Part shown: positions 48,109-51,607 of the stretch, in pieces
Numbering within the stretch: the first letter of the stretch is position 1
How the letters are laid out: every line of letters begins with the position of its first letter
DNA from: an uncultured Bacillales bacterium
Lineage (GTDB): Bacteria > Bacillota_I > Bacilli_A > RF39 > UBA660
Length of the DNA stretch: 55,078 bases
Assembly: GCA_946408655.1 (NCBI GenBank)
Contig: CAMJTE010000001.1
Coordinates: 1-55,078, forward strand
Reading direction: 5' to 3'
Position numbers and translations under genes: made by a program
Notes under the pieces: generated by a model
Told to the model about the DNA's origin: nothing
Seen by the model: the letters and a program-made list of their open reading frames with translations, nothing else
Database searches by the model: none

Positions 48109-50421
48109 TTAATTAATAATGTCATATTCTTGATTAAATATATCATCAATTGTAATTGTATCACGTGCTCCCATATCTGAATAATCATATTCCATATTCT
48201 CTACAGCTAAGTCCTTTAAAAATGACGTCAAATCGTCATCAAGAAGCATCTCAATACAAATATTATCAATTATTATGTCTACATCTATTTTAATATTTTC
48301 CATCTCATAACCTTTTTCTTTAATTAAGTTAATCAATTCAAAACTTTGACTTTTAATTTCATCCTCTACTTGTGTTCTTAATTCATATACAAAATCACTA
48401 TTTACCTCAATTTCTTCTATTTCCATATGAAATTTTTCATCTGCAGATGCTTCATTTATCAATTCTTTTGCATATTCTTCACCAATAATTGTCAATTTTT
48501 GTTCTAAAGCATCTACATATATTTCTTCTAAACTTTCTTCAATAATAGTCAATGGAATTTTTTGAGTTGAATAATAATCAAATAATTCCTCTATATAATC
48601 ATAGTCTGCATCACAAAACCTCTTTGAAACTAAATCCATATTAGATAGTTTTTCTTCTAAATTATAATATTCTCGTATTTTCTCGTCCATTGCCATTTTA
48701 ATTAAATAATTTCCACCAATATCTATATTAAATAAATCACTAATATAATTAATTAAATTTTTATCAAAATATTTATTTTTTAATATAAAATTAATTTTCT
48801 TCTTTTTATCTAAATATTGATTACTCATGAACGAATTATATTGATTATATGCAATTAATTTTTCAAAGCCCTCAATTTTATCTTCTAAAATAGATGGTAA
48901 AATATTCACTATTTTATCTATTTGCTCTATATATAATGCATTATCATAAATTTTCTTTAATTGAGCCATATTATCTAAAAGGTAATTCTGAATATAGTCA
49001 TTAATAGATGGATTTAGAACACTTATATATTTTTTCTTGCCTAATATTGCAATTCCTATTAATGACTTACTCAATCTATTTATTGAATCTTCAAAGCTAT
49101 ATTTTTCAACTTCAGAATTAGAATTACAAAGATAATTTGTAACAGATTTATGAAGGCAATCAACAGGTATATAATTATTTCCTAATGTATACAATTGATA
49201 CATTAGGACTACATCACACGTTTCTATTCTCTCAAACTCACTTTTCCAAATATCTTTTGGATTATTTAATGATTCAATAATATAATTAAAAAAATTCTCA
49301 GAAGCTACCCTATTAGATCTTTTGCAACACATTTCAATGATTCGTGTATTAAAAGATTTATGATTAATTATTAAATTATAATTGTTATCTTTTTTTATAG
49401 TATTAAATGATTTTTTTGTAACACCATTATGATACATTAAGTTATACAATATTCTCGCCCTATCTAATTGACTTAAATCATTTACATCAATTAGGCACTC
49501 TTTTATACCTATTTCATCTAATAATTTTTCAAATTCTTCTTTTTCATGTTTTGCCTTGTTTAAAATAGTAATTCTACTATTTAATATAACCTTCTTATTA
49601 TTAAAAATTGTAGTTAACTTCAATAAATTTTTTAAATCATTAATCAACTTATCATCTAAAGATAATGAAGTTTGACCTAAAAAATCATCTAAAAATATTA
49701 TTTCAGGATCATCATTTTGATGTACAGACTCTATTAATTTTGATAAGTCGTTATTAGATACTGTTGTCAATTTATAATCTTTATTATTTGCTAAAAGATA
49801 TCTTATTAACATTTTTGATGTTATTGTTTTTCCAATACCAGGATCTCCGACAAATAAGATTATTCCATTTGAATTAATAATATCCACTGCATTATAATAA
49901 GCTTTGGTTTCAACAAAAAATTTTGTTTCATTTTCAAAATCATTTATAATTACCTTACTTATTGCATCAGAATATCTATTTAAATACAAATCTAAAACAA
50001 TAGATGAAGATAGCCATAATTTATGATTTTTTTTCAAAACATCTATATTATTAGTGTCAGATAAAAAGTCATCAATATCTGTTTTCCCTATTATATAAGA
50101 GTAATCATCCATATATTCGTGAAAAATTTCATATATATTTTCTACTATTTTTTTTCCCAGTTCTGCAGTTGTAAGTAAATAGTATTTTTCAAATTCTGTG
50201 TTTTTTATTTTATTATATTCATTTTGACAAACTGTTTTTAAATTTAATGAGTCCTTATAACGTTTGCATTGACATATAATTTTTCCATCTAAACTTATTA
50301 AATCAATTCCATCATCTTTTCCCGGACCAAATCTTTTAAATTTTGTATTTAATTTTTTCTCCATAAAATCCATACAAAACTTTTCAAATTCTAATGGATC
50401 TAAATTTAATATATTAAACAT
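48109..50421 (-). CDS. Mrr-type PD-(D/E)xK nuclease domain fused to a STAND-like P-loop NTPase and a helical C-terminal region
   Basis: The probable start is 50421 (MFNILNL), overlapping the upstream stop by 8 nt. Nuclease motif GPGKDDGIDLISLDGKIICQCKRY. Walker A GDPGIGKT. Walker B IIFLDDFLG. About 450 aa of helical C-terminus. Confidence 0.65.
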   Translation of the reverse strand: MFNILNLDPLEFEKFCMDFMEKKLNTKFKRFGPGKDDGIDLISLDGKIICQCKRYKDSLNLKTVCQNEYNKIKNTEFEKYYLLTTAELGKKIVENIYEIFHEYMDDYSYIIGKTDIDDFLSDTNNIDVLKKNHKLWLSSSIVLDLYLNRYSDAISKVIINDFENETKFFVETKAYYNAVDIINSNGIILFVGDPGIGKTITSKMLIRYLLANNKDYKLTTVSNNDLSKLIESVHQNDDPEIIFLDDFLGQTSLSLDDKLINDLKNLLKLTTIFNNKKVILNSRITILNKAKHEKEEFEKLLDEIGIKECLIDVNDLSQLDRARILYNLMYHNGVTKKSFNTIKKDNNYNLIINHKSFNTRIIEMCCKRSNRVASENFFNYIIESLNNPKDIWKSEFERIETCDVVLMYQLYTLGNNYIPVDCLHKSVTNYLCNSNSEVEKYSFEDSINRLSKSLIGIAILGKKKYISVLNPSINDYIQNYLLDNMAQLKKIYDNALYIEQIDKIVNILPSILEDKIEGFEKLIAYNQYNSFMSNQYLDKKKKINFILKNKYFDKNLINYISDLFNIDIGGNYLIKMAMDEKIREYYNLEEKLSNMDLVSKRFCDADYDYIEELFDYYSTQKIPLTIIEESLEEIYVDALEQKLTIIGEEYAKELINEASADEKFHMEIEEIEVNSDFVYELRTQVEDEIKSQSFELINLIKEKGYEMENIKIDVDIIIDNICIEMLLDDDLTSFLKDLAVENMEYDYSDMGARDTITIDDIFNQEYDIIN

Positions 50422-51607
50422 TTTCATCACTTCCTTCAAATATAGAACTATATTTTTTATAATTATTAAAGTTATCCAAAAACTCAATAAAAGCTGTAGT
50501 ATCAGTCTTTTTCCCCAAATAATTCAATTCATTTTCTAAATTATCGTCAAATTCTAAATATTTCTTACATTTTTTTATTTCTTCATTAATCAAAACATTA
50601 TTGCTATCATTTTTATCGTCAATATCAAATAAAGGCACAACCTCAATCCCTAATTGTTCAAAAACATTAATAAAAGGCAAATAATGAGGTTTTCCATAAC
50701 ATTGAAAAATACTATATTGATTATATTGCTCAAGTTTTTTTACTAATAATGATTTTAAAAATAATAAGTCATTAATACCTTCAATCATATATACTTTTTT
50801 TGAAAAAATAGCCTCAAAAAATTCTTTTTTATGTAATTCTATTATATTTTTCTTAAAACTTAATGCGTTATAATAAGCTTTTGATTTATTATTTAAATTA
50901 TCTAAATGTATAGATTTTGAAATAGATACCGCATCATTAAAATTTATTTTCTTAGGGTTCCCATAATTTGGATCATTAAAAATATATAATTCATTAAAAT
51001 CAATATTTAACAAACTTAGTAATTCTGGAGAATGAGTTGCAATACACACATCTTTATCTATACTCAACTTATTAATCAATCCAGCTGTAATGTGTAATAA
51101 TGAAGGATGTGTATGATTCTCTGGTTCGTCTAAAAATATATATTTTTTATTGCTTTTTTCAATTAATTTTAATAAAAATTGCAATTTTTGACCGCTACCC
51201 ATAGAATTCTTTAAATCATCTGAATTTATTTTGATAAGTTTTTTATGCTCTTTACTAGATGTAGTATCTATAACATCTTTTTTTCTCTGTTGATTATTAA
51301 GAGATAACACTTCATTCATAATATCATTATACATTTTTTTATTCTCTTCTACATTTTTGTCTATTAATTTTTCATAATTATTTTTTGCAGTATTAATATC
51401 ATCATTTTCTAACAATTCTTCTATTAAATATTCCATAACAAATGAATTATTAACACTATCCTTCATCTCATCTGCAAAAACTATTTCAGAATTTAGCATT
51501 ATTATATCTTTTCTATTTTTATCCTCTTTTTTTAATTCTTCTATTTTACTATTAATTGCATATGTCTTTCCATAACCATTAGGTCCTATATATATTCTTA
51601 ACATCAC
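50414..51607 (-). CDS. OLD-family-like ABC-type ATPase fused to a Toprim nuclease domain
   Basis: 397 aa. Walker A GPNGYGKT, signature-like SMGSGQK, Walker B YIFLDEPENHTHP, CIATHSP. Toprim-like MIEGINDLLFL and PLFDIDD. GGGAGG RBS. Confidence 0.65.
   Translation of the reverse strand: MMLRIYIGPNGYGKTYAINSKIEELKKEDKNRKDIIMLNSEIVFADEMKDSVNNSFVMEYLIEELLENDDINTAKNNYEKLIDKNVEENKKMYNDIMNEVLSLNNQQRKKDVIDTTSSKEHKKLIKINSDDLKNSMGSGQKLQFLLKLIEKSNKKYIFLDEPENHTHPSLLHITAGLINKLSIDKDVCIATHSPELLSLLNIDFNELYIFNDPNYGNPKKINFNDAVSISKSIHLDNLNNKSKAYYNALSFKKNIIELHKKEFFEAIFSKKVYMIEGINDLLFLKSLLVKKLEQYNQYSIFQCYGKPHYLPFINVFEQLGIEVVPLFDIDDKNDSNNVLINEEIKKCKKYLEFDDNLENELNYLGKKTDTTAFIEFLDNFNNYKKYSSIFEGSDENV

Follow-up and report, generated by a model that had tools for sequence, protein, structure and literature searches.

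A compact OLD-family gene beside an Mrr-nSTAND3 gene in an uncultured Bacillales bacterium: a possible facultative defence partnership

Two adjacent genes, each for a protein with a nuclease and a nucleotide-binding domain, raise the question whether they form one two-gene defence system or are two immune genes that travel together. They lie on the minus strand of a stretch of 55,078 nucleotides (nt) from an uncultured Bacillales bacterium (assembly GCA_946408655.1, contig CAMJTE010000001.1), which is called the window here; its coordinates are positions in the whole stretch. Gene 1 encodes a compact OLD-family protein with an ATP-binding cassette (ABC) ATPase and a Toprim domain, and gene 2, directly downstream, a protein with an Mrr-type nuclease, a STAND NTPase core and a helical C-terminal part. 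A first reading of the bare sequence (the initial annotation) had proposed the pair as a candidate uncharacterised defence system; both open reading frames (ORFs) and all motifs that it quoted are present in the sequence, and its domain calls for both proteins were borne out by Pfam and structure matches. Here we report that the locus is a new combination of known modules, that the STAND family of gene 2 seems to have OLD-type modules as its favoured neighbours in operons, and that the pairing is probably not accidental. The reading that we favour, with a likelihood that we put at about even, is that of two self-sufficient immune genes that are co-transcribed and engaged in a facultative, probably cooperative partnership within the cargo of a mobile island.

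The ORF list gave gene 1 a GTG start (50414..51607, 397 amino acids, aa). Since homologues begin with MLKIY and the ATG at 51604 is preceded by a GGGAGG box at a gap of 5 nt, the true product probably has 396 aa and starts at this ATG. Pfam recognised AAA_21 (36.0 bits, cut-off 27; C-terminal half of the ATPase only) and OLD-like_TOPRIM (PF20469; 36.3 bits, cut-off 23.2). The catalytic motifs are invariant in 21 homologues of 40–93% identity, including S138, G139, Q140, D160, E161, P162 and E163 in the stretch from the ABC signature to Walker B, the H-loop residue H192, and E276, G277, D328 and D330. The top 19 Foldseek matches of the AlphaFold2 model (predicted local distance difference test, pLDDT, 85.7) in the PDB were GajA, the Thermus OLD 6p74 and the retron-Eco8 OLD, each with a probability of 1.0 and with up to 473 aligned columns; the template modelling scores were only 0.31–0.46, because the target chains are larger. 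A profile search of the PDB with the gene 1 family likewise matched GajA and 6p74.

The description of gene 1 as unusually compact proved correct: with 396 aa, it is about 150–200 aa shorter than solved OLDs, and among its PDB matches, full-length chains of the OLD family have 528–598 aa. In the model, one long helical hairpin is all that spans the distance from Walker A to the signature motif, and the Toprim strands (271–275, 298–302, 322–328 and 351–353) are split by single helices only, with no helical insertion. The compact family is well populated, with 186 clusters at 90% identity, almost all of them of 385–400 aa. An NCBIfam search gave nothing near threshold. In the PADLOC search that had been suggested as a check, gene 1 has no specific model and only weak, partial matches to the ABC-ATPase components of several systems, but gene 2 matches the candidate PDC-S73 over its full length.

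Class 1 OLDs have variable gene neighbourhoods and no helical insertion in the Toprim domain (PMC12796447). Like gene 1, its members (P2 Old, Thermus scotoductus 6p74 and Vibrio cholerae OLD) have an ABC ATPase fused to a Toprim domain; they stand alone in variable neighbourhoods, as do about 30 gene 1 relatives of 36–59% identity, whereas the clade of the window is operonic with a STAND gene, and 6p74 has 512–528 aa as against about 395 aa. With respect to class 2, GajA of Gabija was the best fold and sequence-profile match of gene 1, but the matches to GajA in PADLOC were weak and partial (E of 5.6e-6 or weaker), and Pfam found no UvrD domain beside gene 1, whose neighbours are GmrSD_N-HNH and Mrr-nSTAND3 proteins. 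For class 3 (retrons), no reverse transcriptase domain was found in the neighbouring ORFs by Pfam, a search that did not extend to msr/msd non-coding RNA. In class 4, the PARIS type, ATPase and Toprim (DUF4435) are on separate proteins, whereas gene 1 has both in 396 aa. PARIS and AbiL/RloA-RloB have the same two catalytic modules as gene 1, and there is a weak AriA match to the C-terminal half of the ATPase (E=1e-10); because the modules of gene 1 are fused, a release of a separate Toprim effector as in PARIS cannot apply. Gene 1 is thus a member of the OLD family but not of classes 2, 3 or 4, and it agrees with class 1 in all but its size and its operonic partner. As modelled, it is a minimal class-1-like OLD, and its 396-aa product, a natural minimal OLD, is useful to define the essential ABC-Toprim parts.

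For gene 2, the ORF list gave a product of 792 aa from an upstream TTG; this start was rejected, as homologues begin at the ATG at 50421, which yields 770 aa. The protein has the tripartite layout of Avs proteins, with the Mrr and nSTAND3 domains (Table 1) followed by a helical part at residues 336–770. In 45 homologues, the Mrr residues E13, D36, D40 and Q51-x-K53 are invariant, as are Walker A (G192–T199), Walker B (D245–D246) and R283 of the NTPase, and every one of these catalytic residues is kept with or without an OLD neighbour. Judged by this conservation, the STAND protein does not seem to rely on gene 1. The idea that the OLD substitutes for a decayed Mrr effector was rejected, since none of the 45 homologues checked has lost any of the Mrr residues.

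In PADLOC-DB v2.0.0, gene 2 matched PDC-S73 with E=8.3e-99 and 330 bits (residues 6–764 on positions 8–751 of a profile of 752), so that its family was on record as a defence candidate before. PDC-S73 resembles gene 2 in its Mrr, nSTAND3 and helical C-terminal parts; its definition is that of a single gene, whereas gene 2 is translationally coupled to an OLD gene. The other matches at E<=0.01 were two Argonaute-associated restriction endonuclease (REase) N-termini and mad8. No AVAST hidden Markov model (HMM) in PADLOC was matched; models of AVAST I–V are part of the database. The name PDC-S73 appeared in no paper found by a literature search.

The AlphaFold2 model of gene 2 (pLDDT 85.2) had EcAvs4 (8dgf), SAMD9, Apaf-1, CED-4 and AVAST5 (9nc9) as its best fold matches in the PDB; a sequence search of the PDB gave no match. 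The best of these, the Mrr-STAND-TPR protein EcAvs4 (E=2.6e-6, 790 aligned columns), is like gene 2 in its N-terminal Mrr effector, STAND core and C-terminal helical sensor, but it belongs to another STAND clade, has a chain of 1534 residues (twice as long) and is only about 12% identical. The nSTAND3 domain (PF20720) is the NTPase of Avs5, a sensor of the SIR2-nSTAND3-repeat type (bioRxiv 10.1101/2025.07.08.663546). Avs5 and gene 2 have the NTPase family, the tripartite logic and the size in common (9nc9 chains of 767–768 aa), but differ in the effector, SIR2 as against Mrr_cat, and are about 12% identical (9nc9); the expected output of gene 2 would be DNA cleavage, as opposed to the NAD+ depletion by Avs5. 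The initial statement that gene 2 is much shorter than Avs proteins therefore applies to EcAvs4 and not to AVAST5.

The C-terminal 265 residues are the fastest-evolving part of gene 2 and change about twice as fast as the remainder. In homologues with 63–72% overall identity, the C-terminal part is 46–47% identical as against 72–86% elsewhere, and most of the distant relatives align over residues 1–505 only. Such fast divergence would be typical of a sensor that is under pressure to diversify. In architecture and fold, gene 2 thus resembles an Avs receptor that carries its own nuclease effector.

The junction of the two genes agrees with the initial description of a gene 2 product of about 770 aa and an overlap of 8 nt, as the ATG at 50421 lies upstream of the gene 1 stop (TAA, 50414–50416). 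In relatives with 66–67% identity, a gap of 1 nt separates the two ORFs. By their arrangement, the two genes are translationally coupled, and the hairpin that follows gene 2 is the sole terminator-like site in 47300–55078. Long ORFs in DNA of 21–25% G + C, domain matches above threshold and hundreds of homologues together show that the genes are not due to chance.

No description of an OLD and Mrr-STAND pair was found in the literature, including the OLD classification paper, which lists helicase, retron, split-Toprim and membrane-protein partners and 11 uncharacterised clades (PMC12796447). A survey from 2026, which covers at least 90 families of defence STANDs, makes no mention of OLD or Toprim, and PADLOC has no two-gene model for the combination. 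In the sources searched, the pair is therefore undescribed, as initially proposed, with the restriction that gene 2 by itself was already known as PDC-S73.

The two genes were followed in a scan centred on gene 2 (79 species-representative genomes; OLD neighbours were counted in 78 loci, 6 kb on each side) and a scan centred on gene 1 (54 metagenome loci). The HMM of the compact OLD family was too narrow for other OLDs, and iterated phmmer and Pfam checks were used instead. Of the tight neighbours of the STAND family that could be identified, those of OLD type are the most frequent, and about nine flanking genes are available per locus. An OLD-type module lies within 6 kb of STAND in 18 of the 78 loci and adjoins it in all of them except L074; complete Gabija pairs adjoin STAND in five loci besides those named below. 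The compact OLDs of about 395 aa included, at least five unrelated OLD lineages lie 0–52 nt from STAND relatives or overlap them, in either gene order. Upstream of STAND, there are OLDs of 624 aa (at 22 nt, L022) and 620 aa (at 52 nt, L138/L139), as well as a split module consisting of AAA_21 (449 aa) and an RloB-like Toprim protein (223 aa; at 1 nt, L029 and L030, 3986–5996). OLDs of about 490 aa lie 3 nt downstream of STAND or overlap it (L023, L033, L018), and one of the same family lies 20 nt upstream (L154). An OLD of 652 aa is found 5 nt downstream in L029, where STAND has OLD-type modules on both sides. A single dedicated clade of STAND-associated OLDs was rejected, as the partners are at most 27% identical over partial lengths and mutually unrelated, with the exception of the members of the compact and the ~490-aa families. 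Even among the ~490-aa OLDs the link is facultative, since STAND is missing beside three divergent members, and another has it in the opposite gene order.

Other neighbours were observed beside these families. A fusion of YunG with uracil-DNA-glycosylase lies 4–13 nt upstream of STAND in three contigs (L007, 201–1115; L136, 4088–4987; L137, 160–1059) and is a further recurrent, tightly coupled partner of the STAND family. Genes for YhcG/DUF1016 PD-(D/E)xK nucleases lie 48–78 nt from STAND, on its downstream side in loci of Lachnospiraceae and on its upstream side in L134 (L041, L043–L048, L134); their recurrence may reflect a shared mobile element and not a functional link. In L152, a ~490-aa OLD directly follows a GmrSD_N-HNH gene like that of the window. 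P0189, which is the gene 1 relative of highest abundance, has no STAND; it is always preceded, at 80 nt, by a 404-aa protein without a Pfam match, and a stretch of 1.7 kb without a called gene (6177–7895) is conserved downstream in four contigs (L142–L145).

The recurrent adjacency of OLD-type genes points to a preferred partnership, for which the case is good but not conclusive, and the OLD–STAND pairing is probably cooperative. From characterised relatives, we infer a role against phages, what would trigger it, which DNA would be attacked and whether the two proteins would cooperate. As in the Avs family, the variable helical C-terminus of gene 2 would bind a phage protein, and the ATP-bound nSTAND3 domains would oligomerise; the Mrr PD-(D/E)xK domains would then come together as an active DNase, and the DNA would be destroyed and the infection aborted. 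Following characterised OLDs, the ABC ATPase of gene 1 would, by its nucleotide state, gate a Toprim nickase/exonuclease, which would nick or degrade phage or damaged DNA. A pairing that is facultative yet prefers OLDs suggests a layered or cooperative relation. Speculatively, the OLD could act on nicks, DNA ends or a drop in nucleotides once STAND has fired; alternatively, it could cover phages that escape or inhibit STAND. The idea of cooperation comes from the analogy with Tmn, a P-loop NTPase sensor that depletes ATP and thereby potentiates Gabija and Septu (PMC13001434). There, a phage-sensing NTPase co-occurs with nuclease systems whose ABC ATPases sense ATP, and a facultative partnership of OLD and STAND could follow the same model; Tmn, however, is a membrane NTPase of the YobI family that collapses ATP, and the systems are unrelated in sequence.

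Several points weigh against this favoured reading. We know of no STAND NTPase that hydrolyses ATP to an extent sufficient to de-repress an OLD, which makes the proposed cooperation speculative. In a small defence hotspot, genes end up side by side in any case; moreover, the adjacency in 18 of 78 loci goes back to about a dozen independent events, as many of the loci are related, and is set against no matched control family. PDC-S73 is a purely computational candidate. Finally, the coupling is kept down to one deeply divergent, Pfam-confirmed pair (L096, 41%/31% identity), which would also fit a true two-component system.

Pure stacking, in which unrelated defence genes are packed into a mobile cargo slot without interplay and the OLD adjacency stems from shared hotspots near restriction-modification (RM) genes, is unlikely but deserves serious consideration. 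Each family mostly occurs without the other. No OLD-type gene lies within 6 kb of STAND in 60 of the 78 loci, and the gene 2 homologues of Bacillus and Brachyspira are solitary, among housekeeping genes. In the gene-1-centred scan, the approximately 30 relatives of 36–59% identity are without STAND and have varied neighbours (Mob_Pre, AlwI, type III Res with SIR2, and unknowns). Also, the slot upstream of STAND is exchangeable: in L005 and L006, a 628-aa Schlafen-group-3 (DUF2075-type) helicase takes the place of the OLD (4040–5926, 68 nt from STAND), and the downstream helix-turn-helix (HTH) and serine-recombinase genes are retained. Both genes are found separately downstream of RM genes, namely STAND after type III Res in L148, compact OLD relatives (~39–40%) after a type III-like Res helicase-endonuclease and SIR2_2 in L104 (1055–6173), L149 (2055–7173) and L106; in L081 the RM gene is HsdR. 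On one viral contig (IMGVR_UViG_3300037045_000233), the compact OLD of L149 and a STAND relative (L147) are 12 kb apart. Stacking is also in line with the variable neighbourhoods by which class 1 OLD genes are defined (PMC12796447). It does not readily account for the fact that one STAND family is coupled, in both orders, to a split ABC/RloB module and to OLDs from at least five lineages without mutual relationship, for the rank of OLD-type genes as its commonest identifiable tight neighbour, or for the start/stop overlap, which is kept throughout the paired clade.

A bolder proposal, which we consider rather doubtful, is that OLD-type ATPase-nucleases and Mrr-nSTAND3 sensors constitute a modular two-part immune system and a further OLD 'class', in which the STAND oligomer would license or recruit an exchangeable OLD, or the OLD would read the DNA damage or nucleotide consumption of STAND. 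If so, the 396-aa protein would be a minimal OLD able to serve in it.

The compact pair itself has a narrow distribution. In the gene-2-centred scan, a compact OLD is directly upstream of STAND only in the four closest genomes (66–99% identity), and in the gene-1-centred scan, STAND is next downstream of gene 1 relatives with 65–98% identity. In L001, a metagenome-assembled genome of the Erysipelotrichaceae, gene 2 is 99% and gene 1 98.7% identical. The identities of the two proteins are concordant in the 12 paired loci (99/99, 98/98, 93/92, 90/90, ~67/67 and 41/31). Upstream of the pair lie type II RM genes in the window, L001 and L080, and type I HsdR in L081, L089 and L090; other contexts also occur. 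A five-gene unit (T5orf172, methyltransferase, REase, OLD and STAND) was rejected, since in changed surroundings no more than OLD and STAND remain side by side. The pair is inherited together only in a shallow clade (>=65% identity) plus L096; on this distribution, it appears to move as a module, and neither family seems to need the other. Co-occurrence in other genomes, which the initial annotation had made a test of its proposal, is thus confirmed in part: OLD-type modules recur beside STAND, but general co-occurrence of the two genes is absent.

An obligate two-component system would be a new OLD class in which STAND senses the phage and needs the OLD as its co-effector or regulator, or with these roles exchanged, in a complex like GajA-GajB or AriA-AriB. 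It would fit the 8-nt overlap and the common terminator, the strictly concordant divergence that extends to the 41%/31% pair, the retention of the pair while its flanks change, and the recurrence of OLD–STAND operons with other OLD lineages. We nevertheless regard it as improbable, because the pair is co-inherited only shallowly and STAND-less OLDs as well as solitary, intact STANDs exist. The closest gene 2 relatives outside the group of the window (L005/L006, 71% identity), which are sister to this group and inside the paired clade in a rough neighbour-joining tree, are without OLD, and so is the 43%-identical STAND P0060. Relatives of gene 1 at 57–59% identity are already without STAND, the STAND protein has its own intact effector everywhere, and PADLOC handles the gene 2 family as single-gene. 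In L089 (6187–8493), the gene 2 homologue is broken into ORFs of 135 and 599 aa and the upstream compact OLD is intact, which may represent a decaying STAND beside a maintained OLD.

Should the link be functional, as in the cooperative partnership that we favour, it would add a new type of partner to the OLD family beyond UvrD helicases, retrons and the split Toprim protein. It would also provide an example of an Avs-like receptor that works with a second, separately encoded nuclease, which bears on the cooperation of defence genes. If the link is not functional, the locus would be a tidy case of defence stacking (RM, OLD, STAND and T5orf172) at the recombinase end of an integrative island in gut Bacillota.

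That the nucleases are not primarily anti-phage and serve the island, e.g. by addiction/post-segregational killing or exclusion of competitors, is very improbable: the module adjoins HTH_36 and large serine recombinase genes (L001, L004, L089 and L090 have the same order, as does L005 with its helicase) and some gene 1 relatives are on Mob_Pre mobilisable elements, but no antitoxin-like partner is evident, STAND homologues are found outside mobile contexts too, and in its layout and its quickly diverging sensor, gene 2 is like the Avs proteins that sense phages.

Table 1. Features of the gene pair and its surroundings in the window.
Feature	Position	Strand	Evidence or remark
Gene 1, compact OLD-family ATPase-nuclease	50414..51604	-	Probably 396 aa from ATG 51604; ABC ATPase ~1–205, Toprim ~267–390
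Gene 1 Walker A GPNGYGKT (residues 8–15)	51563..51586	-	G8, P9, N10, G11, G13 and K14 invariant
Gene 1 ABC signature MGSGQ (136–140) to Walker B/D-loop IFLDEPEN (156–163)	51119..51202	-	Invariant residues
Gene 1 OLD-like Toprim core (residues 267–330)	50618..50809	-	Pfam PF20469; catalytic E276, D328xD330
Gene 1/gene 2 junction	50414..50437	-	GAAGGAAG ribosome-binding box 50430–50437; ATGs 50427 and 50421; gene 1 stop TAA 50414–50416
Gene 2, Mrr-nSTAND3-helical Avs-like STAND, 770 aa	48109..50421	-	ORF, Pfam, PADLOC PDC-S73, AlphaFold2
Gene 2 Mrr-type PD-(D/E)xK nuclease (residues 5–90)	50152..50409	-	Pfam Mrr_cat, 40 bits
Gene 2 nSTAND3 NTPase core (residues 169–331)	49429..49917	-	Pfam PF20720, 117 bits
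Gene 2 C-terminal all-helical region (residues ~506–770), putative sensor	48112..48906	-	AlphaFold2 model helical
Terminator-like hairpin and T-run	48075..48091	-	17 nt past gene 2 stop; consensus match only
T5orf172 protein	53978–54634	-	PADLOC single-gene candidate PDC-S57, E=7.5e-56
EcoRI-like adenine methyltransferase and GmrSD_N-HNH protein	51678–53973	-	20-nt overlap of the two genes
HTH_36 gene	47450–47953		Beyond gene 2 in order
Large serine recombinase	45652–47298		Beyond HTH_36 gene in order
Bro-N protein	44709–45536	-	PADLOC single-gene candidate PDC-S13, E=8e-104
Conjugative element	3898–34610	-	Coupling protein, ATPase, TrbL and cell-wall hydrolase genes
tRNA-Leu	36030–36116		Sole tRNA gene of the window; just past the end of the conjugative element

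The initial annotation had placed the pair on a mobile element beside other defence genes, and Pfam and PADLOC agree: the genes are cargo of a serine-recombinase island. They are the last of five co-directional minus-strand ORFs (54634 to 48109; T5orf172, methyltransferase, GmrSD_N-HNH, gene 1 and gene 2; ORF list, Pfam and PADLOC) and lie downstream of a type II RM pair, in which PADLOC assigned the protein with GmrSD_N (DUF262) and HNH domains to the type II REases (E=3e-80). Because proteins with DUF262 and HNH are commonly regarded as modification-dependent, a methylase partner is unusual.

The window is AT-rich (21–35% G + C). The genes of its conjugative element encode a VirD4-like coupling protein (7157–9304), a VirB4/TraG-like ATPase (14817–16604), a TrbL-like protein (17462–19462), and CHAP and M23/lysozyme cell-wall hydrolases; the tRNA-Leu gene may be the integration site of this element. 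Elsewhere in the window there are chromosomal genes, e.g. for RNase R and a tRNA methyltransferase. Since the conjugative element and chromosomal genes fill the rest of the window, the gene pair belongs to an integrative island of its own, a small one at the end of the contig. No near-identical DNA was found in phage and plasmid collections. A scan of viral contigs with gene 1 alone gave no relatives, and scans with alignments gave just 3 and 2 loci. The candidates PDC-S57 (T5orf172) and PDC-S13 (Bro-N) lie on either side of the island, and the Bro-N protein additionally matches a type I specificity-subunit model.

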